49,490 nt of DNA from an uncultured Candidatus Saccharibacteria bacterium (GTDB taxonomy: Bacteria; Patescibacteriota; Minisyncoccia; Phycocordibacterales; UBA918), in assembly GCA_964399295.1 (NCBI GenBank), contig CAYNQD010000001.1:152454-201943 (forward strand). The letters are read 5' to 3'. The notes under the pieces were generated by a model, which saw only the letters and a list, made by a program, of their open reading frames with translations, searched no databases and was not told where the DNA came from. A program made the position numbers and the translations under genes. Positions 3,798 to 49,459 of this stretch are shown here, one piece after another. How positions within the stretch are numbered: the first letter of the stretch is position 1; each line of letters begins with the position of its first letter.

Positions 3798-5516
3798 ATG
3801 AGACAGCAAATGGTGATTAGAATTCGTATCATCACAGGGTTGGTTTTGTTTTTGTCTTTGATTTTAATATTCAATCTTTACAAGATTCAGATTGTTCATA
3901 GCGAGTATTATCTTGAAAAGGCGGAACGGCAGTATGTTCATACCAAGAAGGATTTGTATTCGCGGGGATCAATTTTTTTTACAACTAAAGATGGTGAACA
4001 AGTTTCCGCTGCTTCCATACGGTCTGGCTTTTTGTTGGCTTTCAATCCCGGCATGATAAAAGACCCGGCAGCCGTTTGCGAGAAATTGGCTCCATATCTG
4101 ACTATTACCAACGAACGCTGCTTGGACAGAGCTAGTCTCCAAGGACGGACTTATGTCGAGGTGGAGCTTACTTTGCCGGATGATGTCTACGAGAAGGTGT
4201 CAGCACTAAAAATAGACGGTGTGCAACTATACAAAAATCAGTGGCGGTATTATCCGGGCGGCGACTTGGCGGCCAAGGTAATCGGTTTTGTTGGCTTTAG
4301 TGATACTACCAACAATGATTTGCACGGTAAATATGGCTTGGAGAGGTATTATGATGAAATTTTGTTTAAAGATAGAGAGGTTAGGTCTGTCAATTTTTTT
4401 GCTGAGATTTTTAGCAATTTAGGCAATATTGTCTACCAGAAAAATGAAAAATTAAAAGGCAATGTCGTGACCACTATTGAGCCGACAGTGGCCAGAATGT
4501 TGGATTCAGTTTTGCTACAAACCAACAGTAAGTATGAAAGCAAAATGACCGGTGCTATCATCATGGATCCCAAAACCGGAGCTATCTACGCCATGAATGT
4601 TGTGCCCAGTTTTGATTTGAATAATCGAGGCACCACGACTGTGGAATATTTTAAAAATCCTTTGGTGGAAGATGTCTATGAATTTGGTTCCACCATCAAG
4701 GCGCTGACAATGGCTGCCGGACTCGATAGTGGAGCCATCACCCCTTATTCCACCTATTACGATTCCGGCTCGATTAGTCTAAATACTTTTACCATCAAAA
4801 ATTATGACGGCCGCGGCCGCGGTACTGTCGATATGCAAGAGGTGTTGAATCAATCACTAAATACCGGCGTGGCTCACATTGTGCAGAAGATGGGTAAAGA
4901 AAAATTCCGAGAATATTTTCTAAATTTAAAACTGGGAAGTGAAACCGGTATCGACCAACCCAACGAAGTGTTTGGCCTGGTTGATAATCTAAAATCGCCG
5001 CGCGACGTGGAATACGCAACCGCTTCCTTTGGACAAGGAATTGCTTTGACTCCCATCGCTACCATTAGAGCTTTGGCTGTTCTTGGCAATGGTGGGAAAT
5101 TGGTCACACCGCATCTGGCTTCCAGAATTGAATACGAGGATGGTACTCATCGTGATATTCGTTACCCGGATGGCGGTCAAATAATTTCTGCGGAGACCAG
5201 TGAAGAAATATCAAGGATGCTGGTCAATGTCGTCGATGACGCTTTAGCTGGCGGCAAACATTCATTACCACAGCATACCATTGGCGCCAAAACGGGAACC
5301 GCGCAAATCGCCAATCCCGGCGGCGGCGGGTATTACGAAGACCGATTTTTGCACTCATTTTTCGGTTATTTTCCCGCCTATGACCCCAGATTCGTTATTT
5401 TCATGTATACTGTAGAGCCAAAGGGGGTAAAATACGCTTCAGAGACACTGACCGAGCCATTTATGGATATTACAAAATTCTTGATTAATTACTACACTAT
5501 TCCACCTGACCGCTAA
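3798..5516 (+). CDS. ftsI: Penicillin-binding protein 2/3-type peptidoglycan D,D-transpeptidase (FtsI-like)
   Basis: 572 aa with an N-terminal TM and the SxxK (GSTIK), SxN (QSLN) and KTG (AKTGTA) motifs. Confidence 0.9.
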   Translation: MRQQMVIRIRIITGLVLFLSLILIFNLYKIQIVHSEYYLEKAERQYVHTKKDLYSRGSIFFTTKDGEQVSAASIRSGFLLAFNPGMIKDPAAVCEKLAPYLTITNERCLDRASLQGRTYVEVELTLPDDVYEKVSALKIDGVQLYKNQWRYYPGGDLAAKVIGFVGFSDTTNNDLHGKYGLERYYDEILFKDREVRSVNFFAEIFSNLGNIVYQKNEKLKGNVVTTIEPTVARMLDSVLLQTNSKYESKMTGAIIMDPKTGAIYAMNVVPSFDLNNRGTTTVEYFKNPLVEDVYEFGSTIKALTMAAGLDSGAITPYSTYYDSGSISLNTFTIKNYDGRGRGTVDMQEVLNQSLNTGVAHIVQKMGKEKFREYFLNLKLGSETGIDQPNEVFGLVDNLKSPRDVEYATASFGQGIALTPIATIRALAVLGNGGKLVTPHLASRIEYEDGTHRDIRYPDGGQIISAETSEEISRMLVNVVDDALAGGKHSLPQHTIGAKTGTAQIANPGGGGYYEDRFLHSFFGYFPAYDPRFVIFMYTVEPKGVKYASETLTEPFMDITKFLINYYTIPPDR

Positions 5517-24031: not shown

Positions 24032-24634
24032 ATGTATTCATATCGCGTTGAACAGGCGATTCGGGCGGCTTCAGTCTTGCATAAAGACCAATTACGAAAA
24101 GGTATTATGCCTTTCCCGTACATCACACACTTGGTCGCGGTCGCTTTTACTTTGTTTGATTACACTCACGACGAAGATGTAATTATCGCCGCTCTGTTGC
24201 ATGATACTCTTGAAGATACCGATTATACCGTTGATGAATTGCAAGAAGATTTTGGCGGCCGGGTTAGGGAAATTGTCGAAGCCGTCACCGAGCCAAAAAC
24301 CGACGGCGACCGCAAGCTCTCCTGGCTGGAGAGAAAAATGGCGTATGTCAAGCAATTGAAAAAAGCTCCTCCTGAAGCTTTACTGGTGTCGGCCGCTGAT
24401 AAAATTCACAATTTTCGTACTGTCGTTGAGAATTATACCGAAGACTACAATAGATACGTTCAAGATTTTGGCAAAAACTTTGATGAACGATTGGAAGTTT
24501 ATCAAGACCTTAGTGATGTCATAAACAAAGGTTTGGATAGTCCGATTGTTGATGAATTTAATCACGTTTTTGAAGAGCATAAGCAATTTTTATACAGAAT
24601 AAAAGAGATTGAAGATAATAGTTATGGTACCTAA
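24032..24634 (+). CDS. HD-domain phosphohydrolase, RelA/SpoT-hydrolase-like (small alarmone hydrolase type)
   Basis: YITHLVAVA... AALLHDTLEDTDYTVDELQEDFGGRVREIVEAVTE matches the HD_4/(p)ppGpp hydrolase pattern. Confidence 0.75.
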   Translation: MYSYRVEQAIRAASVLHKDQLRKGIMPFPYITHLVAVAFTLFDYTHDEDVIIAALLHDTLEDTDYTVDELQEDFGGRVREIVEAVTEPKTDGDRKLSWLERKMAYVKQLKKAPPEALLVSAADKIHNFRTVVENYTEDYNRYVQDFGKNFDERLEVYQDLSDVINKGLDSPIVDEFNHVFEEHKQFLYRIKEIEDNSYGT

Positions 24635-25904
24635 ACAATTCAAACACTTAAAAACCGTTCAAGATATCAGTGAGTATGAGCTTAAAAGTAATGGTCTGCG
24701 GGTTTTGTATAAACACGTCCCTGATACGGGCGTGGTGACGACAAATGTCACTTATTTGGTGGGAGCCAGAGATGAAGGCTTGGGAGAGACTGGAGCCACC
24801 CATATGCTGGAACACATGTTGTTTAAGCCGACCAAATACGATTTGGAGAAAAAGCAAGACGCGGCCGCCATGCAGTTTGAGCGCGAAGTAGGAGTCATTT
24901 TAAATGCCAACACCTGGAAAGACAGGACCACTTACTTTTTTTCATGTGGAAAAGAGCATTTAGTCAGAGCGCTAACCATCGAAGCGGAACGAATGCGCGG
25001 CTTGGTGTTGACTGATAAGGAATTTCAGCCGGAGCGCAATAACGTGCTTAGTGAATTTGACATGTACAACGGCGACCCAAGTTTTGCCTTGGCGGTGGAC
25101 ATGGTATGTGTGGCTTTTCATTCTCATCCGTATGGGCACGAGACGATTGGTTTCAGGGAAGATATTTCTGCCTATACCACAGACATGCTGCAAAAATTCT
25201 ACGACCATTTTTATCGCCCCAACAACGCGGTGTTGATGGTTGTTGGTGACGTTGAACTTACTTTTGCGCTTAAAAATATCGCTAGCTTGTTTGGTCATTT
25301 GGAGTCCGAGCCCAGTGTAAAAATTCGTCCACAGGTGGTAGAACCAAAACAAGAAGGTGTTAGAAGAGTTGAGATTGTTCGCGCTGGTACGACCAATATA
25401 TTAGCTCTGGGGGTAAAACACGACGGCTTCCCGAGCCATAGTTGGTTTGAAACGATGTTGGTGTTTAATCTTCTAACCGATGGCGTTGATAGCGTTTTGC
25501 ACAAAGCTTTGGTAGATACCGGTCTGGCTTCCAATGTGTCTTCAGTAGTGGAACCAACTCGTGATAAAAATTTAGGCGTGATTTATATTACTTTGACCAA
25601 AAAAATCAATCATCAGAAAATGGAAGAAAAAGTATTGCGGATTATTAGGGATTTGGGTGAAGATGTAATAAAAAAGAAGCTGAAAAATCTAGTCACTTTG
25701 GCCATAAACTCTGAGATATTTGGGCGAGACAGTAGCTTAAATATTGTGCAAGAATTGACCGAGTATGTATCATCAGGAAATTGGCCGGCTTATTTTGAAA
25801 CGGAAAAACTCCTTAAAAGCATCACTCACAAACAAATAAAAACTCGGCTAACGGAATTATTTGCTGACCAAAACTTAACTATCGGTGTTTACAAGAGTAA
25901 ATAA
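24624..25904 (+). CDS. M16 family zinc peptidase, catalytic subunit (HxxEH)
   Basis: GATHMLEHMLFK plus the downstream ERNNVLSE. ATG 24624 overlaps the HD gene by 11 nt. Confidence 0.85.
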   Translation: MVPKQFKHLKTVQDISEYELKSNGLRVLYKHVPDTGVVTTNVTYLVGARDEGLGETGATHMLEHMLFKPTKYDLEKKQDAAAMQFEREVGVILNANTWKDRTTYFFSCGKEHLVRALTIEAERMRGLVLTDKEFQPERNNVLSEFDMYNGDPSFALAVDMVCVAFHSHPYGHETIGFREDISAYTTDMLQKFYDHFYRPNNAVLMVVGDVELTFALKNIASLFGHLESEPSVKIRPQVVEPKQEGVRRVEIVRAGTTNILALGVKHDGFPSHSWFETMLVFNLLTDGVDSVLHKALVDTGLASNVSSVVEPTRDKNLGVIYITLTKKINHQKMEEKVLRIIRDLGEDVIKKKLKNLVTLAINSEIFGRDSSLNIVQELTEYVSSGNWPAYFETEKLLKSITHKQIKTRLTELFADQNLTIGVYKSK

Positions 25905-25910
25905 ATTATC

Positions 25911-27215
25911 ATGGAAATAAAAACTTTCACTCGTCCTAGATACGTCGGTGCGGAAATTGTAAAAGACAGTACGCAGATTGTGTACGCCTATATTACTGCT
26001 GATTGTTATATTGAAAACACGGCTTTTGAAAATGCTTTACAATTGATTTATAAAGATATTCTTCTGTCTGGGGCCGGCTCTTATTCCCGAGAAGAATTTT
26101 TGCATGCTTTAAATGAGCTTGGAGCTAGTATCAATGTCATAGCCAATGAAGGAAAAATAATGATTGAAATATCAGTTCTTGAGCCACAGCTGGCAAAGGT
26201 TTTGCGTTTGTTTGAGCTTATGCTGACGACTCCGGCTTTCAAAGCCAGCGAGCTGAAGAGGGCTGTTTTTACGGCTAAAAATAGGCTGGAATTATATAAA
26301 GAAGAAGCCAAAGCGCTGGCCTGGGATGGCTTGAAGAGCGCTTTATACAAGGGTTCTGATCGTCACTATACTCACTCTGCTGATACCATCAGCAACGAAC
26401 TAAAAAAAATTACCATATCTGACATAAAAAAATTGCATCAAAAATTCGTTGATTCTTACTTCATGATTACGGTGAGTGGCAACGTTAAAACCACTGCTGC
26501 CGTCTTTAAGCTGATTGATAAAATAAAAAAAGACAGACCGGTTCCATCTCAGATTGAAGTTTCCACTGCCAAGGAGGAGATAATAAGACCACAAATTATT
26601 TCGCAGTCCGTTCCCAGTAAGCAAAATGTTGAAATCTCGATCGGAGCCTCGATACCGCTAACCATTCCGCAGGTGGAGTTGGCGCACTTTTTGTTTGGGT
26701 TGACTGTCTTGGGTAAGTGGGGAGGGTTTGCTGGTCGTCTGATGAGTACGGTGCGGGAGAAGGAGGGTTTGACCTACGGCATATACGCCAGACTGGAGGG
26801 AGCAACCAGAAATGAAACCGGCTATTGGCGAATAATGACGTTTTTCTCGCCTCAAGACACGATGAAGGGAATAAAATCAACCTTAAGGGAGATTAGTAAA
26901 ATCAGAGAGAAAGGAATCACCAAATCAGAATGGGAAAGATTCCAAACCATTCTCAAGACATCCGGCGTGTTGACTTTCGACTCGCTTTCCGGACTTACCT
27001 CATTGGTACATAGTAATTTGGTTGCAGGCTTGTCATTTGAAGAATACGAAGATTTTAGAAATATTCTGTATACTTGCACGCAAAGTGAAGTAAACAAAGC
27101 TCTAAAAAAATACTTGGACTTGGATAAATTGGTTATCAGTGCCGCCGGCCCGGTGGCTTCCATTGATAAAGATTTAAAAACTTTTACCTTGGGTGAATCA
27201 GAGTTAAATTCATAG
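25911..27215 (+). CDS. M16 family peptidase, non-catalytic partner subunit (no HxxEH)
   Basis: 434 aa with M16 two-domain length and layout but no zinc motif. It lies immediately downstream of the catalytic subunit. Confidence 0.7.
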   Translation: MEIKTFTRPRYVGAEIVKDSTQIVYAYITADCYIENTAFENALQLIYKDILLSGAGSYSREEFLHALNELGASINVIANEGKIMIEISVLEPQLAKVLRLFELMLTTPAFKASELKRAVFTAKNRLELYKEEAKALAWDGLKSALYKGSDRHYTHSADTISNELKKITISDIKKLHQKFVDSYFMITVSGNVKTTAAVFKLIDKIKKDRPVPSQIEVSTAKEEIIRPQIISQSVPSKQNVEISIGASIPLTIPQVELAHFLFGLTVLGKWGGFAGRLMSTVREKEGLTYGIYARLEGATRNETGYWRIMTFFSPQDTMKGIKSTLREISKIREKGITKSEWERFQTILKTSGVLTFDSLSGLTSLVHSNLVAGLSFEEYEDFRNILYTCTQSEVNKALKKYLDLDKLVISAAGPVASIDKDLKTFTLGESELNS

Positions 27216-43101: not shown

Positions 43102-44001
43102 ATGATATCTCCATTTCCGTTTTTCAAGAAAATATCTTTAGACGACGAATTGGATATTAAGTCTTACACAAATAAGTATAAGCCATATTCGGATTTTAAT
43201 TTTACCAATCTGTGGTCTTGGGATGATGAGAGGCAATTTTCAGACCTAAATGGTAATTTGATCGTTTATTTTACTGATTATGAATCCGGTGAACCGTTTC
43301 TATCTTTTTTGGGTGAAAATAAAGTTGATGAAACGGCTTCAACGCTAATTGATTATGCTAAAGAAAAAGGTTTACCGCCAACCTTAGATTTGGTGGGCGA
43401 GGAATCAATTAAAAATATAAATCAAGACAAATTTTTTGTCGAACCAAGTAATGGAAATTTCGATTATATATTTGATATTTCTAAACTGGCTTTTTTGCAA
43501 GGGAAGAGTTTTAAAGCAAAAAAGAGGTCGTCTGTAAATTTTCTTGCTAATAATGAAGTATCTTTTGATTGCGTTCCCCTGAAAAAACAGTATTGTGTTG
43601 ATGATTTGCTTTCGGTAATTCTTAAATGGAAACACAATAAAATTAAAGAAGGTAAAAGTTATTGTAAGCAAGAAGAATTAAGTCTAAAAAAACTTTTTGC
43701 CGCCACGGTAACCAACGATCAGTTATTATTGTCGACGGTTTTGGTGGACAATAACATTGTCGGTTTTAGTGTGGACGAGGTCTTGGTGGATGGTTATGCG
43801 ATTTCACATTTTATTAAGGCTGATGTTTCATACAAAGGTATTTATGAATTTATGAATGAAAAAATCGCGGAAAAATTGCATGAACGTGGTATTGTGTATT
43901 GGAACTGGGAGCAGGATTTGGGAGTAGAGTGTCTCAAGCTCAATAAGCTTAGTTATCATCCGGTAGATTTATTAAAAAAATATAAAATAACTCTCAGGTA
44001 A
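43102..44001 (+). CDS. DUF2156 / MprF C-terminal synthase-like (LPG_synthase_C, GNAT-fold) protein
   Basis: 299 aa with YSDFNFTNLWSWD..., GNFDYIFDISKLAFLQGKSFKAKKRSSVNF, GFSVDEVL, WNWEQDLGVECLKLNKLSYHP and KKYKI. This matches the DUF2156 pattern as I remember it. Confidence 0.7.
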   Translation: MISPFPFFKKISLDDELDIKSYTNKYKPYSDFNFTNLWSWDDERQFSDLNGNLIVYFTDYESGEPFLSFLGENKVDETASTLIDYAKEKGLPPTLDLVGEESIKNINQDKFFVEPSNGNFDYIFDISKLAFLQGKSFKAKKRSSVNFLANNEVSFDCVPLKKQYCVDDLLSVILKWKHNKIKEGKSYCKQEELSLKKLFAATVTNDQLLLSTVLVDNNIVGFSVDEVLVDGYAISHFIKADVSYKGIYEFMNEKIAEKLHERGIVYWNWEQDLGVECLKLNKLSYHPVDLLKKYKITLR

Positions 44002-44010
44002 TTTAAAAAT

Positions 44011-44931
44011 ATGTCTTGGTTTTTTATCGCAATAATCGGACCGGTGCTATATGCTCTGACAAACCATATAGACAAAATTCTTTTAGAAAAATATTTTAAA
44101 CAAAGCGGGGTCGGTACTCTCATATTGTTTTCTTCGCTTTTGTCGGCCTTGGCTTTGCCGTTTTTGCTTCTGATAGACCCAACTGTGTTGGATATTGATA
44201 TTTTTAATATAATGATACTGGCGGTCTTGGGGATTCTAAACATACTGGTTCTTTGGTTTTATTTATTGGCTCTGATGGATGAAGAGGCTTCGGTTGCGAT
44301 TGTCTTCTACCAGTTGGTGCCGGTTTTTGGCGTGATATTGGGGTATTTTCTTCTGGGCGAAGTCTTAACGCAAATGCAACTCATAGCCATGGCTATCATC
44401 ATTTTGGGAGCCACGATAATCTCTTTTGAAATAGATAATGACAATAAATTCACCCTAAGAAAACAAACGATTTTTTACATGACAATAGCTTCCTTTTTCT
44501 GGGCGCTTAGTTCGGTAATTTTTAAGTTTGTGGCCTTGGAGGAAAATGTTTGGCGAACACTTTTTTGGGAACATCTGATGATGGTGTTGGTGGGAATTTG
44601 TATTTTTGTGTTTGTGAGGTCGTATCGTCAGCATTTTTTATTGGCTATTAAGGAAAATTCACGAGCTATTTTGTCGCTTAATGTTGCCAACGAAACCTTA
44701 TACATGCTGGGAAATATCGCTTTTTCTTTCGCTTATTTGTTGGCGCCAATCGCGTTGGTTTTGTTGACTCAATCTTTTCAGCCGATTTTCGTATTGGCCA
44801 TCGGAATATTTTTAACCATCTTTTTCCCAAAAATCACCGTAGAAAAAATTGAAGCTAAATATTTATGGCAAAAACTTTTTGCTATTTGCATAACCGGAAT
44901 AGGTACTTACATCCTGCTGTTTATCTCCTAA
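44011..44931 (+). CDS. EamA/DMT-superfamily transporter (10 TM)
   Basis: 306 aa. Two EamA-like five-helix repeats are recognisable from the hydrophobicity pattern. Confidence 0.75.
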   Translation: MSWFFIAIIGPVLYALTNHIDKILLEKYFKQSGVGTLILFSSLLSALALPFLLLIDPTVLDIDIFNIMILAVLGILNILVLWFYLLALMDEEASVAIVFYQLVPVFGVILGYFLLGEVLTQMQLIAMAIIILGATIISFEIDNDNKFTLRKQTIFYMTIASFFWALSSVIFKFVALEENVWRTLFWEHLMMVLVGICIFVFVRSYRQHFLLAIKENSRAILSLNVANETLYMLGNIAFSFAYLLAPIALVLLTQSFQPIFVLAIGIFLTIFFPKITVEKIEAKYLWQKLFAICITGIGTYILLFIS

Positions 44932-45005: not shown

Positions 45006-45380
45006 ATGCACTTTAAGAAATACATACTTTTGTACACCCTAATACCGTTACTAATTATAACTGTCGCCGCTTCATATTACCGTTTTATAGTCTTGCATGA
45101 TTATGTTGTCGCTTACGAAATCGAGTGCGACCCGGTGTTGCAAAGCTGTTTTGTTGGCTGCGAAGACGATGAGTGTTCTGCTAAATACCACTACGCTATT
45201 ATGCAGAGACATGCTTCTGATTTAATAGAGCTTTGCGGTGTAAATATCGTGGGATGTGATGAGGCTTCCATTTGCCAGGCAGGAGAAAGCGAATGTGCGA
45301 TTCTTTTTTGCGATGATCAGACGCTGGGTCATGGCTGTGATGATGTTGGAGATGAAGAGGTGCGTGAATCTATCTTGTAA
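45006..45380 (+). CDS. Signal-anchored Cys-rich acidic protein (124 aa, 10 Cys)
   Basis: N-terminal TM YILLYTLIPLLIITVAASYY, followed by 10 Cys within ~80 residues and an acidic tail. It ends 3 nt before the kinase gene. Confidence 0.6.
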   Translation: MHFKKYILLYTLIPLLIITVAASYYRFIVLHDYVVAYEIECDPVLQSCFVGCEDDECSAKYHYAIMQRHASDLIELCGVNIVGCDEASICQAGESECAILFCDDQTLGHGCDDVGDEEVRESIL

Positions 45381-45383
45381 ATT

Positions 45384-47057
45384 ATGATTTGTTATTTATA
45401 TCCAGAACCGATATTTTTCTTTTTTTCCACCGATGTTCCGGAGTTGCTATATTACTCTCATATACCAGTAGCTTTAGTGATGCTATTTGTAGGTCTCTAT
45501 GTGTTTTTTGGTAATCGACATTCTCTTCTAAATCAACTTTTTTTGTCTTTAGCGTTATGTTTTTTCTCTTGGATAATCATAAATTTAATAGCCTGGACAA
45601 ATATTAACGGAGGACTCATCGCTTTTTTGTGGCCGTTTTTTGGTGTTTTTGCCGGTCTGGTGTCAATCATATCAATCTATTTTATTTATGTGTTTCTACA
45701 CAAAAAAGATGTTCCTTTTTCCTACAAACTTACCTTTCTAGCTCTTTTATCACCACTGATACTACTAGCGCCCAGCAACCTGAGTGTGAGCGGATTCAAC
45801 ATAACCTACTGTGACTCCTTTGGATTTGAAGGGCTGGCTTACAAGACCTACTACACTTCATTGGGTATTTTGTCTATGTTGTGGATTCTTGGTTTGTTGA
45901 TAAAGAGTTATCGTAAAGCGAATCGTTATTTTAAAAAACAGATTATCTGTGTTGGTGTTGGTATTGAATTCTCTTTGTTTATATTTTCTATTGTTTCTTT
46001 CATAACTTATCTGGTAAATATTGGCGTACTTTCAGATTCCAGATTAGAAATGTATGGACTGTTTGGTATCTTGGTTTTTATTATTTCTATTGTTTTTGTC
46101 ATCGTTAGGTATAAAGTATTTAATATAAAGTTAGCTGCTCCAGTGGCTTTGGTTGTTGGTTTGTGGCTGTTGGTTTTTTCACTTTTATTTGTTCGTAATA
46201 TTGAAGTCGCTCAGGTTGTTGTTTCCGTAACTTTGTTTTTCTTGTTTATCTTTGGATACTTGCTTATAAAAGCTGTTAGAAATGAAATCAAACAGCGTGA
46301 AGAAATAGAAAAACTGGCAAAAAGTTTGAGAGAGACCAACCTACGACTCAGAGAGCTTGATAAACAAAAATCAGAATTTGTGGCGATTGCTTCTCATCAG
46401 CTGCGTAGTCCGCTGACGGCGGTCAGTGGCTACGCCTCACTTTTAAAAAGCGGGGACTTCGGCCGATTGCCGGCCAAGGCGCTTGATCCGGTTGATCGCA
46501 TTTATACCTCTGCTCGCTCTATGGCTCAGTCTATAGAAGAATATTTAAATGTGTCGCAAATTGAATCCGGCAGCATGAAGTATAACCTCACTGACTTTAG
46601 TCTGCGTGAAATGGTAGAAAATATTTCTGATGATCTGCGACCTGAAGTTTTGCGATCGGGCCTCCTTTTATTCTTCAAAACCGATTTATCCAGCCGAGCC
46701 ATTGTGCATGCCGACAAAGGTAAAATCGCCCAAGCGATTCACAATCTCATAAATAATTCCATCAAATACACCCAAAAAGGCACGATTACGGTTTTGGTTA
46801 GAGACAATGTCGAACTCAAGCGTATTTACGTAGAGGTGATTGACACAGGGGTCGGCATGAGTGAATCCACCATCTCAAATCTTTTTCAAAAATTCGAACG
46901 TGCTGATAACGCTCACGAGGTCAATGTTCAAGGCTCCGGACTCGGCCTTTATATGGCACTGAAAATTACTGAAGCAATGGGCGGCACTATCAACGCCTAT
47001 TCTGAAGGAGAAGGAAAGGGTTCAAAATTCGTTCTGGAACTGACGCTGGTGGTGTAG
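45384..47057 (+). CDS. Sensor histidine kinase with ~7-8 TM N-terminal sensor domain; no response regulator in the window
   Basis: H-box FVAIASHQLRSPLT, N-box NLINNSIKYT, G1 DTGVGM and G2 GSGLGLY. About 290 aa of polytopic membrane domain. Confidence 0.9.
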   Translation: MICYLYPEPIFFFFSTDVPELLYYSHIPVALVMLFVGLYVFFGNRHSLLNQLFLSLALCFFSWIIINLIAWTNINGGLIAFLWPFFGVFAGLVSIISIYFIYVFLHKKDVPFSYKLTFLALLSPLILLAPSNLSVSGFNITYCDSFGFEGLAYKTYYTSLGILSMLWILGLLIKSYRKANRYFKKQIICVGVGIEFSLFIFSIVSFITYLVNIGVLSDSRLEMYGLFGILVFIISIVFVIVRYKVFNIKLAAPVALVVGLWLLVFSLLFVRNIEVAQVVVSVTLFFLFIFGYLLIKAVRNEIKQREEIEKLAKSLRETNLRLRELDKQKSEFVAIASHQLRSPLTAVSGYASLLKSGDFGRLPAKALDPVDRIYTSARSMAQSIEEYLNVSQIESGSMKYNLTDFSLREMVENISDDLRPEVLRSGLLLFFKTDLSSRAIVHADKGKIAQAIHNLINNSIKYTQKGTITVLVRDNVELKRIYVEVIDTGVGMSESTISNLFQKFERADNAHEVNVQGSGLGLYMALKITEAMGGTINAYSEGEGKGSKFVLELTLVV

Positions 47058-47239
47058 GGGTTTTATTGGTGGGTTTTGTTTGAATTGAGACATATATTCT
47101 CTGGAAGAATCTTGCTTCTCCAAATAAAGGAATCACTCATAATAAACCAGAACTACTATTTTTTGTCAATTGTTTTTTTTGCGTATGCGTTAGACTGCAA
47201 GGGCAGTATCTGGACTATAACTTCATAGGAGACTTAGTA

Positions 47240-47353
47240 ATGGGATGTTCCATTGCGGTGGTGGTGACAGTGACGGTAGTGACAGCGAGCCTGATCATGA
47301 CGGAGGTCATGGTTCAGACGGTGACGGTAACTGGGACGGAAAATAAGTACTAG
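47240..47353 (+). CDS. Micro-ORF with SD and its own terminator; the frame is ambiguous (37 aa from ATG 47240, or 33 aa from ATG 47245 to TAA 47346)
   Basis: AGGAG at 47227-47231. Frame A reads MGCSIAVVVTVTVVTASLIMTEVMVQTVTVTGTENKY. Frame B reads MFHCGGGDSDGSDSEPDHDGGHGSDGDGNWDGK. A hairpin follows at 47362-47393. Confidence 0.4.
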   Translation: MGCSIAVVVTVTVVTASLIMTEVMVQTVTVTGTENKY

Positions 47354-47355
47354 TT

Positions 47356-47398
47356 ATCCCCCCCCCCACATCAGAAAAAACTGATGTGGGGGGATTTT
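47356..47398 (+). terminator. Stem-loop ccccccacatcag-aaaaaa-ctgatgtgggggg plus TTTT; the 5' side carries a C10 homopolymer
   Basis: C-run at 47358-47367 (10 C) against a G6 run at 47088-47093-equivalent positions 47388-47393 on the 3' arm. attttaaaa follows. Confidence 0.65.
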
Positions 47399-47402
47399 AA
47401 AA

Positions 47403-47408
47403 TATAAT
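47403..47408 (+). promoter_or_regulatory. TATAAT -10 box 10 nt upstream of the M16B gene
   Basis: TATAAT lies at 47403-47408 and the ATG at 47419, with no SD. Confidence 0.4.
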
Positions 47409-47418
47409 AATCTATTTC

Positions 47419-48705
47419 ATGCATACTTTTTCAGATTTTGGTGTTGAGTATCAATTTGTTACTTTAAAAAATAAATCCAAGATCCATCTTTTGGGAAAAA
47501 AAGGTGCCCCCATACACATACAGGCTTGTGTACGGGCAGGAACAAGGTACAACACTATTCCAGGTCAGGCACATTTTCTTGAACATATGCTGGTTGCTGG
47601 TACGCGTTCTTATCCTTCAAAGCTAGCTTTAGCAACCGCCATAGAGAAGGTTGGTGGTTATTTTGAAGCGGTGACAGATGCTGATTTTTTACGTCTTACT
47701 GTGTCAGTGCCACATAAAAAATATGTATCATTGGCGGTAAAGATTCTTAATGAAATGATGACCGTTTCACTGTATCAAGAAGCAGTCTTCAAAAATGAAC
47801 AGACAGTTGTTTTAAGAGAGCAAAAAGACCGACTTCATAATTCCCAAATGTTGCTTATGGACACTCTTATGGAAGGAGTTTATTCTGATTTTGAATTGCG
47901 TTTTCAAGGTCTGGGTACTCCTGAAAGTATTTCAAATATGCAAGTGAAATCTGTTACTAAATTCGCGTCTACCAACATTACCGCAGAGAGAACATCATAT
48001 ATTGTCTCAGGAGATATTGAAATGAATGAAATTGAAAATTTTCTTTCAGTAATCACTCTACCTGAGGGTTTTGGAGATACCTTACCTGAACTGCTAACAC
48101 CAATAAATGAAGATAGGGTAACATATAAAAAATATGATGGTGGGAATTCGAATATACTCATTGGCTTTCGTTGTGATACTGATTCTTGGGCTGATGTGGT
48201 AGGGTTGCACTTAATTCAACAGATGTTTATGGGGCGCGGTAGCCGTCTTATTCAAGAACTTCGCTATACTAGGGGGTTGGTATATGGTGGAGGAGTGCCA
48301 TTTTGGGATTTTAATAAGACCAGTGTATTTGGTTTTCGTACCGCGTCGGCAACAGAAAAGCTTACTGAAGTTTTTGATATTATTCTGGATATTTTGGAGG
48401 AGATTTCTTTGAAAGGTATTTCTGAATCAGAATGTGAAGATCTTAAAGTAAAAATTGATAGTCACTATCGGTTTAATCTGCAAACAGCAAAAGAATGGAT
48501 AAATGCGGAGGTTTCAGCGTTACGACATGATGTTGAAGGCGAAGAAGCCAAAAATGCCTTGGCTTTGCTTACATATACTAAACAAATGACAGCTGATGAA
48601 CTAACCGAAATATATAGAAAATACATCAATACCAAAAGTGCTCATTGTGTTGTTCTTGGGTCATTATCAGAAGAAACCTTAGAATATTTCCATAAATTAT
48701 TGTAG
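47419..48705 (+). CDS. Stand-alone M16B-type zinc peptidase (HxxEH intact)
   Basis: 428 aa with GQAHFLEHMLVAGT plus the downstream NEQTVVLREQ, and both M16 half-domains. Confidence 0.85.
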   Translation: MHTFSDFGVEYQFVTLKNKSKIHLLGKKGAPIHIQACVRAGTRYNTIPGQAHFLEHMLVAGTRSYPSKLALATAIEKVGGYFEAVTDADFLRLTVSVPHKKYVSLAVKILNEMMTVSLYQEAVFKNEQTVVLREQKDRLHNSQMLLMDTLMEGVYSDFELRFQGLGTPESISNMQVKSVTKFASTNITAERTSYIVSGDIEMNEIENFLSVITLPEGFGDTLPELLTPINEDRVTYKKYDGGNSNILIGFRCDTDSWADVVGLHLIQQMFMGRGSRLIQELRYTRGLVYGGGVPFWDFNKTSVFGFRTASATEKLTEVFDIILDILEEISLKGISESECEDLKVKIDSHYRFNLQTAKEWINAEVSALRHDVEGEEAKNALALLTYTKQMTADELTEIYRKYINTKSAHCVVLGSLSEETLEYFHKLL

Positions 48706-48820
48706 CGGTATGTTGATAGTGTCTATTTTAGGCTGCAATGTTAAAAGGTTTGACATAAGTATAGTAAAGCTATACTCTTTGAAAAGAATCTCAAATATAA
48801 ACAAAATTTAGGAGAATCCT

Positions 48821-49459
48821 ATGACATATAAGTCTCTGGTTATGCGTCACAGTGGTATATATGTAGTACGTTATAATTTAGAACATACGTCCGCCCCTCA
48901 TAATTTGATTACCGATACCATAACTCCACTTTGGAAAAAGTATGAACCTTGGGCAACTTATAATGATGTAAGTCAGACAGTGACAAGGAAAACAGGTCGT
49001 GTTATAGACATCGCTTATGATGAAACTGGCGATGTTATGGGGGTTTATATTTTCCGTATATTTCAATATGGGTTATGGAGGATTATGTTTAGAGGTAACT
49101 CATACAGTTCTTTAAGTATTCGAGGTGTTGGTTCTTCACTACTAAGATTGACACTGAAACAGTATTATCCTGACAAACTTATTACATTTACTTCACAAGA
49201 TAGGGTATATGCATTTTTGTCTTATTTTGGTGAAATTTTACCGACAATGAATAAAAGTCCTGACGGTGAAGAGTTGCGGCTTTTGTCACAGCTAGCAGGT
49301 CGTTCCTGTAAGGTTGATGAACGTACTCTAATAGTAAAAGATTTTTATTATGATAAGCATGTAGCTCAAGGTAGTGCTGTGCGTAACAAATATGTTCATG
49401 ATTTATTTACCAAATTAGGGAGACGTGATGCTTATGCATTGATTGTTCGTTGTAAATAG
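48821..49459 (+). CDS. Hypothetical protein, weakly GNAT-like
   Basis: 212 aa. AGGAG at 48810-48814 lies 6 nt upstream. The segment VYIFRIF...LSIRGVGSSLLRLTLKQ resembles GNAT motif A (R-x-x-G-x-G/A); the assignment is tentative. Confidence 0.55.
   Translation: MTYKSLVMRHSGIYVVRYNLEHTSAPHNLITDTITPLWKKYEPWATYNDVSQTVTRKTGRVIDIAYDETGDVMGVYIFRIFQYGLWRIMFRGNSYSSLSIRGVGSSLLRLTLKQYYPDKLITFTSQDRVYAFLSYFGEILPTMNKSPDGEELRLLSQLAGRSCKVDERTLIVKDFYYDKHVAQGSAVRNKYVHDLFTKLGRRDAYALIVRCK

Follow-up and report, generated by a model that had tools for sequence, protein, structure and literature searches.

The stretch of DNA examined in this work (the window) comprises 49,490 nucleotides (nt) of contig CAYNQD010000001.1 from the assembly GCA_964399295.1 of an uncultured Candidatus Saccharibacteria bacterium, and the subject of this report is a small gene cassette located near its 3' end. 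The cassette consists of a micro-open reading frame (micro-ORF) of 33 amino acids (aa), a gene for a zinc peptidase of the M16B subfamily and a gene for a 212 aa protein with predicted similarity to the Gcn5-related N-acetyltransferases (GNATs). It lies behind a histidine kinase gene, and a spacer of 361 nt separates the kinase stop (47057) from the start of the M16 gene (47419). A preliminary description, based upon the sequence alone, had regarded this region as a candidate peptide-maturation module of the type that produces peptides made on the ribosome and modified after translation (RiPPs), possibly linked to the adjacent kinase in an agr-like manner. The features of the locus are summarized in Table 1. 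Both of the overlapping micro-ORFs are present with exactly the translations given earlier, as are the TATAAT box, the one-chain M16B peptidase with an intact HFLEH motif (Pfam Peptidase_M16 and M16_C) and the ORF of 212 aa preceded by a Shine-Dalgarno sequence.

Table 1. Features of the cassette locus, with positions as numbered in the window.
Feature	Position	Strand	Remarks
AGGAG, Shine-Dalgarno-like	47227..47231	+	8 nt to the frame A ATG, 13 nt to the frame B ATG
Frame A ORF (MGCSIAVVVTV...), no conserved gene	47240..47353	+	kept open by the GGT/GAC/AGT codon repeats of frame B
Frame B gene for the putative precursor peptide, 33 aa	47245..47346	+	MFHCGGGDSDGSDSEPDHDGGHGSDGDGNWDGK
Terminator-like hairpin and TTTT (47395-47398)	47362..47398	+	stem 47362-47374 / 47381-47393, loop AAAAAA
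TATAAT box	47403..47408	+	seen in the sequence, 10 nt ahead of the M16 start
Single-chain M16B zinc peptidase, 428 aa	47419..48705	+	HFLEH (HxxEH), EQTVVLRE (E-x6-E), Pfam matches
AGGAG Shine-Dalgarno of the 212 aa gene	48810..48814	+	6 nt ahead of the ATG
Divergent basic acyltransferase of predicted GNAT fold, 212 aa, pI 9.5	48821..49459	+	RGVGSS CoA-loop motif, C-terminal extension of ~70 residues

The DNA of the micro-ORF is, as had been stated earlier, a degenerate repeat of the GGT/GAC type that keeps two frames open, and these repeats correspond to the Gly, Asp and Ser codons of frame B. In a comparison of seven distinct loci, the pairwise differences fell 30, 32 and 241 times on codon positions 1, 2 and 3 of frame B, and the codon differences in this frame comprised 217 synonymous versus 38 non-synonymous changes, in contrast to ratios of 7/240 and 41/203 for the two other frames. 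The Ser residues of frame B alternate between AGY and TCN codons in different loci, and the 33 aa ORF is also predicted by the gene caller on the source contig. In view of the codon-position bias and the excess of synonymous changes, frame B is a protein-coding gene that is under strong purifying selection, and the frame-specific substitution test that was proposed earlier is thus resolved in favor of the peptide rich in Gly, Asp, Ser and His. The frame A translations from other loci are unrelated, and due to this lack of amino acid conservation frame A was ruled out as a gene. A minus-strand ORF (47215-47310) also overlies the micro-ORF, and similar ORFs are present in the orthologous loci, e.g. 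one of 110 aa in locus L008. Both the frame A and the minus-strand ORFs are artefacts of the Gly/Asp/Ser codon repeats which could mislead gene callers. The lesson for annotation is that Gly/Asp repeats can hold several frames open, and that the real frame is recognized only by comparative codon analysis.

The frame B peptide of the window begins with an N-terminal extension of 4 residues, after which come the conserved C-x-GG|D junction and an acidic core that hardly varies, and its net charge is about -8 (-6 to -9 for the peptides of this family). Across the different loci the N-terminal part varies from 4 to ~40 residues, the junction has the form [Cys/Met]-x(0-2)-Gly-Gly|Asp, and the polyanionic core, ...SEPDHDGGHGS(D/E)GDGNWDG(K/D/Q), is nearly invariant; this 22-residue core is far more conserved than the enzymes encoded by the cassette itself. 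Examples of the orthologous sequences are ...GGDSEPDHDGGHGSDGDGNWDGK (L002), ...GGDGPDSEPDHDGGHGSEGDGNWDGD (L004), ...GGDSEPSHDGGHGSDGDGNWGG (L008) and ...GGDSEPDHDGGHGSDGDGNWDGQ (L009). Most orthologous cores are free of lysine, which is absent after the junction in L004/Parcubacteria bacterium OLB19, L008 and L009. The OLB19 peptide has been deposited as a "hypothetical protein" (KXJ97901.1), and searches with the peptide against Pfam, NCBIfam, PADLOC and the PDB sequences yielded no match.

The linkage of the three genes was examined from both of its ends. Homologues of the 212 aa protein form six clusters at 90% identity among 5.8 billion proteins, and in all six clusters the gene directly follows a peptidase gene. 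The synteny check that had been suggested earlier gave a clear result, in that a frame B-like micro-ORF is found upstream of every homologous peptidase/212 aa gene pair for which the DNA extends far enough. From the peptide side, the back-translated core HDGGHGS[D/E]GDGNW was scanned against public DNA collections. The feature goes far beyond what chance would give, as this pattern had no match in 100 shuffles of the window and recurs with third-position variation in independent genomes; it was found in a single genome (OLB19) among 185,579 GTDB species representatives and in six contigs from the JGI metagenomes. In all seven of these loci an M16 gene starts 60–110 nt after the micro-ORF, and a homologue of the 212 aa protein comes next in those contigs that extend far enough. 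A profile search built on eight of the peptides recovered only about ten clusters from the 5.8 billion proteins, and the three new variants from this search whose surroundings were looked up all adjoin an M16 gene. In total, 11 distinct loci are now available: the peptide is followed by M16 in ten and by a peptidase of the S9 family in one, and the 212 aa protein is present in nine.

A relaxed form of the core pattern matched two Parcubacteria genomes and one Pantoea sequence among the GTDB representatives. The Pantoea match lies inside a 453 aa ORF and was discarded as a chance occurrence. A phage origin of the cassette was also considered and rejected, as the relaxed pattern had no match in viral contigs. 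The taxonomically named loci are limited to two metagenome-assembled genomes (MAGs) of Parcubacteria, the others being unbinned metagenome contigs, and the distribution of the cassette is very narrow, involving a few Parcubacteria (Patescibacteria or candidate phyla radiation, CPR).

The genes that surround the cassette differ from one locus to another. In the window its neighbours are genes for a polytopic histidine kinase and for a tRNA synthetase of the class-I Trp/Tyr type. In the complete OLB19 locus, genes for a NusB-like protein and RNase III are followed by the peptide, M16 and 212 aa genes and then by pilin-like genes. The flanks in other loci are S16/KhpA and TrmD/RpoB, FKBP/TGT or a GH15 glycosidase. 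As the flanks are different, the cassette is a conserved unit of which the histidine kinase forms no part, and it moves as a unit between genomic neighbourhoods. In locus L015 (11633-12082), and also in L016, an IS200-like Y1 transposase (Y1_Tnp, E = 2.6e-36) is encoded on the opposite strand, some hundreds of bases ahead of the cassette on its upstream side. The presence of this gene in one lineage is a possible hint as to how the cassette moves.

These results bear directly upon the proposal that the peptide is an agr- or ComX-type pheromone to which the neighbouring kinase responds. The window does contain a multi-pass kinase (HisKA, HATPase_c) immediately upstream, and the one Trp that is conserved close to the C-terminus (..NWDG) is reminiscent of the Trp-modified ComX pheromones, a resemblance only. 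However, this kinase borders the cassette in this genome alone, and its place is taken by unrelated genes in the other loci with readable flanks, so that the agr-like tie of the preliminary description could not be upheld. In contrast to agr and ComQXPA, the cassette also contains no homologue of AgrB or ComQ, and no exporter or response regulator. Further, pherotype signals usually diversify, whereas the core is nearly identical among loci in which the enzymes are only 43–64% identical. A pheromone sensed by this kinase is hence regarded as very improbable.

The peptidase of the window shows significant similarity to the Pfam families PF00675 (E = 4.9e-18) and PF05193 (E = 1.9e-19), and the residues H52, E55, H56, E127 and E134 are invariant in the six M16 orthologues, which share 43–64% identity with it. 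Based upon its HxxEH motif, downstream Glu ligand, M16_C domain and length, it is assigned to the M16 subfamily B, and its catalytic motifs are intact. Its closest relatives of solved structure are the Bacillus halodurans M16B protein 3hdi (BH2405-type) and MPP-beta. The scores against the NCBIfam equivalogs YfmF and YfmH, which are M16 proteins associated with the 5-aminopentanol modification of EF-P, are below the cut-offs (41.8 bits versus 285, and 18.4 bits versus 250, respectively). Models of defence systems matched neither the M16 protein nor the GNAT, and in a GTDB scan with the M16 alignment the matches listed included generic M16 proteins of ≤30% identity and no orthologues. The pI of the M16 proteins is between 5.1 and 6.5, and their overall charge is thus uninformative on an acidic substrate. 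Peptidases of the M16 family, and likewise the S9 prolyl oligopeptidases, accept oligopeptide substrates only.

The preliminary description had allowed that this enzyme could be a generic housekeeping M16. A separate pair of adjacent M16B genes, both with Pfam M16 and M16_C domains, is present in the window at 24609-25904 (431 aa) and 25911-27215 (434 aa). This pair is the usual housekeeping two-subunit arrangement, and the genome by this count has three M16 genes. In view of the housekeeping pair, the M16 of the cassette is an additional, specialised paralogue and not the housekeeping enzyme.

M16B proteins process precursor peptides in several RiPP pathways. Pairs of M16B proteins are the cognate leader proteases for andalusicin-type class III lanthipeptides (PMC10604976). 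The cassette enzyme resembles ThurP3/ThurP4 of class III lanthipeptides, AlbE/AlbF and PqqF/PqqG in that it is a two-domain clam-shell M16B with an HxxEH motif which would be dedicated to a small ribosomal precursor, but unlike them it is a single chain encoded right after this precursor, and it probably functions as a homodimer. The lanthipeptide and pyrroloquinoline quinone (PQQ) pathways differ from the cassette in other respects also, as no LanKC, radical-SAM or PqqB–E genes accompany it. With regard to PQQ biosynthesis, pqqB–E are absent from the neighbourhood, the window peptide contains no Tyr, and hence no E-x3-Y of the PqqA type, and has no PqqA match, and the window M16 scores 25 bits against the PqqF model of NCBIfam, for which the cut-off is 320.

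The 212 aa protein of the window matched no family in Pfam or NCBIfam. An exhaustive profile search of 1.84 billion proteins identified relatives with 28 representatives, and the AF2 model built with this 28-sequence alignment has a pLDDT of 94.1 and a pTM of 0.89. In a Foldseek comparison of the model with the PDB, GNATs occupied the best 50 of 164 matches at E ≤ 0.001 throughout, with the N-terminal acetyltransferase NatD/Naa40 first, followed by GCN5/PCAF and Naa50 (TM-scores of 0.4–0.55). Eight of the 28 family members match Acetyltransf_1 of Pfam (PF00583; best E = 9.6e-09), and a family profile searched against the PDB retrieved GNATs only (best E = 8e-4). The close clade keeps a loop of the R-G-x-G-x-x type, with the sequences RGVGSS, RGIGVS and KGIGAP, at the beta4-alpha3 position where coenzyme A (CoA) would bind, and G104 is invariant. 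The GNAT-like character noted earlier from a motif is thus borne out by both profile and structure searches: the protein is predicted to have the GNAT fold, and the structures nearest to the model are peptide N-alpha-acetyltransferases. The GNATs are consistently basic (pI 8.8–9.9, as compared to a median near 6 for the ORFs of the window), and in this they complement the polyanionic peptides. A GTDB scan with the 212 aa alignment gave no match; its two patterns were too strict, as OLB19 does carry this gene.

More distant relatives of this GNAT (~20% identity) adjoin peptidases of the M20 family (L017, 1768-3619; L018, 5001-8302), and no peptide of the above type is called near them. In L018 a tRNA synthetase of the class-I Trp/Tyr type is encoded after the M20 peptidase, and the same kind of gene follows the GNAT on the source contig (L001, 8216-9178). 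This shared neighbour may be a coincidence.

A number of the loci depart from the common arrangement. In L007, M16 is replaced by an enzyme of the S9 prolyl-oligopeptidase family, encoded between the micro-ORF and a GNAT gene; this GNAT shares 56% identity with that of the window by alignment (55% by BLASTP). The L007 peptide keeps the leader motif C-W-S-S-P-Y-P-E and a GGGDSDG junction, and the same hairpin layout follows its gene, but the core is different (GGGDSDGCDGNDGPGGSPCDGDCDG; CDGNDGPGGSPCDGDCDG), being rich in Asp, Gly and Cys, with three Cys, two Pro and no His or Trp. The peptidase family and the core have therefore changed together while the GNAT and the junction have stayed, as expected if the peptide is the substrate of these enzymes. 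S9 proteases that cleave RiPP precursors are known, e.g. WprP2 (PMC12957482). The S9 gene of L007 likewise sits with a putative precursor, between the micro-ORF and the GNAT, but it has no radical-SAM partner, and the core in this case is the Asp/Gly/Cys-rich one with two Pro.

In the locus represented by L103 and L104, two different micro-ORFs (4122-4283 and 4335-4451 in L103), each with its own GGAGG, stand in tandem before one pair of M16 and 212 aa genes. The peptides that they encode are ...TFHCNGGDDEPDHDGGHGTDGDDKWSEP and ...IFYCGGGDEGHEPEPTDDGGWSDE. The second core (GGGDEGHEPEPTDDGGWSDE) is quite unlike that of the main family. Two further loci have the peptide and M16 with no GNAT nearby: in L102, a MAG of Candidatus Parcubacteria, no 212 aa gene is within reach, and in L105 the peptide and M16 genes are accompanied by a VanZ-like gene. 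Directly upstream of the micro-ORF in L102 (3252-5700) are genes for an M20 peptidase and for two abutting ORFs that resemble the two parts of an ATP-grasp ligase broken by a split or a frameshift, with a Pre-ATP-grasp match in Pfam and weak matches to biotin carboxylase and D-Ala-D-Ala ligase. This ATP-grasp-like pair could be an alternative tailoring enzyme.

Each of the 11 distinct loci has a strong terminator-like hairpin after its last micro-ORF and ahead of the peptidase gene (z of -3.05 to -6.86). The hairpin and T-run previously noted in the window have a 13-bp G+C stem (-27.8 kcal/mol; z = -5.96 relative to dinucleotide shuffles) followed by ATTTTAAAA, and because the run is of only 4 T, this hairpin is not listed by a simple terminator scan. 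In the stretches tested the stems are of 9–19 bp with energies of about -21 to -34 kcal/mol; the stem sequences differ among loci, and 3–5 T follow in most of them. At the tandem locus the hairpin is found only after the second micro-ORF (z = 0.87 between the two). The preliminary description had called the micro-ORF terminator-bracketed. This is valid for its 3' side, but on the 5' side the spacer between the kinase gene and the micro-ORF has no terminator-like site and no more structure than its shuffles (z = 0.70 and 0.02). No Rfam family reached its gathering score in the spacer between the kinase and M16 genes or in the orthologous loci, where the matches were at the level of chance.

The order of a precursor gene led by a Shine-Dalgarno sequence, a strong hairpin with a U-run and then the enzymes, which holds in 11 of the 11 loci, is like that of a lantibiotic operon such as nisA. 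In nisA, the structural gene is followed by a leaky terminator and then by the biosynthetic genes. By analogy, the hairpin of the cassette would either end most transcripts or stabilise the short mRNA of the peptide, and the precursor would greatly outnumber the enzyme, as in the lantibiotic operons.

The hairpin is also central to the most serious alternative, according to which the micro-ORF would act in cis, as a regulatory leader or an arrest peptide whose translation controls read-through into the M16 and GNAT genes, the released peptide being functionless. The trigger in this case would be stalling at ...NWDG-stop, as in TnaC, or destabilisation of the ribosome on the acidic SEPDHD, as in MgtL. 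The cassette shares with TnaC, MgtL and the trp leader a short conserved ORF followed by a terminator-like hairpin upstream of genes. Such a hairpin follows the stop in every locus, and in the window, L008 and L007 it lies 11–15 nt past the stop, within the reach of a ribosome paused there. Known arrest peptides are conserved in their amino acids, so the codon pattern of frame B is compatible with this explanation, and the acidic Pro/Asp/Glu content resembles ribosome-destabilising sequences such as that of MgtL. However, when the hairpin was co-folded with the RNA of the ORF, it was kept in the minimum-energy structure in all five loci tested and no competing antiterminator fold was predicted, and classical attenuation was rejected on this ground. 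The distance from stop to hairpin varies from 11 to 40 nt, and a change of the core together with the peptidase family, as seen in L007, is not what one would look for in a pure regulator. The tandem arrangement of two distinct micro-ORFs, each with a Shine-Dalgarno sequence of its own, also differs from the known leaders. Lastly, the interval from the hairpin to the start of the peptidase gene contains A/T-rich -10-like boxes, in other loci as well as in the window, which suggests that the enzymes are transcribed separately. A regulatory role for the micro-ORF is thus considered quite unlikely.

The explanation that we favor, and in which we have reasonable though by no means full confidence, is that the cassette constitutes a three-gene RiPP-like peptide-maturation system, where the M16 enzyme would trim the precursor and the GNAT would acylate the freed N-terminus of a polyanionic peptide rich in Asp, His and Gly. 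What is found here, a short precursor gene under selection beside predicted processing and modifying enzymes, is the arrangement by which a RiPP cluster is recognized. The M16B chamber, to which only oligopeptides would be admitted, would cut off the N-terminal extension at the GG|D junction or close to it, and the GNAT would then place an acyl group (acetyl by default) on the newly freed alpha-amine. The N-terminus is the likely target because most of the cores lack lysine and it is the only amine left. These steps would yield an N-capped peptide of ~21–27 residues, and its composition, with Gly-spaced Asp and His in the main type and Asp and Cys in the variant linked to S9, suggests the binding of divalent metals. 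As for the peptide-maturation module of the preliminary description, the linkage of its genes, the coding status of frame B, the identity of the GNAT and the layout seen in 11 of 11 loci all speak for it, none of the three outcomes named there as refuting it was observed, and the link to the kinase is not supported.

A known parallel for the order of these steps is provided by the microviridins, in which the N-terminus exposed by proteolysis is capped by an N-acetyltransferase (PMC13039773). The proposed sequence of cleaving and then capping is the same, and the microviridin pathway likewise relies on a precursor made by the ribosome, on cleavage by a protease and on a GNAT encoded by the cluster. 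It differs in that the precursors are unrelated, the GNAT of the window falls below every Pfam GNAT threshold, and the peptidase encoded in the cassette is an M16B. ATP-grasp genes, characteristic of microviridins and other graspetides, are absent from ten of the 11 loci including the window, the split pair of L102 being the only one observed.

A number of observations weigh against this explanation. The proposed cleavage and acylation steps follow from the gene neighbourhood, and due to the TM-scores of only 0.4–0.55 the acyl donor and acceptor are not readable from the structure. The CoA metabolism of many CPR bacteria is considered to be limited. The cassette has no conserved RiPP recognition element (RRE), transporter or immunity gene; with regard to the RRE, which RiPP clusters often but not necessarily contain, M16 and M16_C are the only Pfam or NCBIfam domains matched by proteins of the cassette, and no structure-based search for it was made. 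Only 4 residues precede the GGG junction in the window precursor, and therefore leader-guided recognition as in classical RiPPs cannot work here. A nearly invariant core with a variable leader is also the reverse of what is seen in most RiPP families. The spacing of the AGGAG sequence in the window (8 versus 13 nt) is better suited to the non-conserved frame A. Finally, as two of the 11 loci (L102 and L105) lack the GNAT, acylation is either dispensable or supplied from elsewhere.

The absence of the GNAT from these two loci is likewise in accordance with a different explanation, that the peptide is an unmodified small acidic protein (e.g. a metal buffer or a chaperone-like protein), for which M16 serves as the turnover or activation protease, while the GNAT is only loosely associated and has another substrate (for instance a different protein, an amino acid or some aminoacyl compound). 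The link between peptide and M16 is universal for cores of the HDGGHGS type, a functional unit that is folded or binds metal would be expected to show the near invariance that is seen over all 22 residues of the core, and the distant GNAT relatives beside M20 peptidases have no such peptide called nearby. In contrast, the close GNAT clade was found only beside a peptidase that follows a micro-ORF (six of six clusters), it stays with the micro-ORF even where S9 has replaced M16, and its strongly basic character complements the polyanionic peptide. An unmodified protein is consequently viewed as unlikely.

If the maturation system that we favor is extended further, the cassette could define a previously unrecognised class of ribosomal peptide natural products confined to Parcubacteria, with an N-alpha-acylated polyanionic product of ~21–27 residues made by a minimal two-enzyme pathway (a dedicated single-chain M16B cutting [C/M]x0-2GG|D and basic, peptide-specific GNATs of a new clade), the product serving as a metallophore- or metallochaperone-like metal-binding factor or as a host-interaction factor in these reduced and probably episymbiotic bacteria. 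This broader proposal is speculative, and we hold it only tentatively as one possibility.

The logic of the cassette is of a known kind, i.e. a ribosomal precursor with a protease and a tailoring enzyme, while its precursor family, GNAT clade and architecture all appear to be new as judged by sequence. In the library of papers that was searched there was none with the core motif and none that described a cassette of precursor, M16 and GNAT in CPR bacteria, and it is likely that this peptide-maturation system has so far remained undescribed. The CPR/Patescibacteria have tiny genomes in which very few biosynthetic clusters have been recognized, and the small molecules and peptides that they use are almost unstudied. 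The micropeptide gene has been missed or left unnamed by annotation, and the OLB19 copy is the only one in a named public MAG. If the above proposal is correct, the cassette would provide a new precursor family, a new clade of peptide-acting GNATs, an M16B whose gene adjoins that of its precursor, and a first way into the peptide chemistry of Parcubacteria. As only three genes are involved, their synthesis is easy and they are well suited to heterologous reconstitution.

Some features of the start signals also deserve mention. The AGGAG sequence ahead of the micro-ORF had earlier been described as rare in the window. As a pentamer it is not rare (74 occurrences versus 64 expected), but as a Shine-Dalgarno site it is, since AGGAG or GGAGG lies within 20 nt upstream of only four of the 48 plus-strand starts, two of which are those of the micro-ORF and the 212 aa gene. 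A 4-mer Shine-Dalgarno sequence precedes seven of these 48 starts, and A/T-rich sequence such as AATAAA is mostly found upstream. In the orthologous loci, GGAGG or AGGAG is placed 6 nt ahead of the micro-ORF start, in genomes that rarely use such sites. The M16 gene of the window has no Shine-Dalgarno site at its start, and the TATAAT sequence may be an internal promoter that gives rise to a nearly leaderless M16 mRNA. In three related loci, L002 (2290-2400), L004 (2400-2480) and L107 (6700-6790), the 70–100 nt upstream of the micro-ORF start are similar to one another (...GGAATAAGTTYGTTTAAYTTTGAGGTGGTC...GACTGARTTTRTTCTT...TTTGGAGGT). This shared stretch has no match in Rfam, and it may represent a conserved promoter or 5' untranslated region, or may merely reflect close relatedness.

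Upstream of the cassette in the window, the kinase gene (45384-47057) codes for a long multi-pass N-terminal region followed by HisKA and HATPase_c domains. Further upstream, at 43102-44931 and thus 2–4 kb from the cassette, a stand-alone LPG_synthase_C gene (DUF2156, the fold of an aminoacyl-tRNA-dependent transferase) is followed by a gene for a transporter of the EamA family; these two genes are not conserved beside the cassette in other genomes. Between them and the kinase is a 124 aa ORF (45006-45380) with one N-terminal hydrophobic segment and 13 Cys, which has no match in Pfam or NCBIfam. Its stop lies 4 nt ahead of the kinase gene, and its product may be an accessory sensing partner of this kinase.

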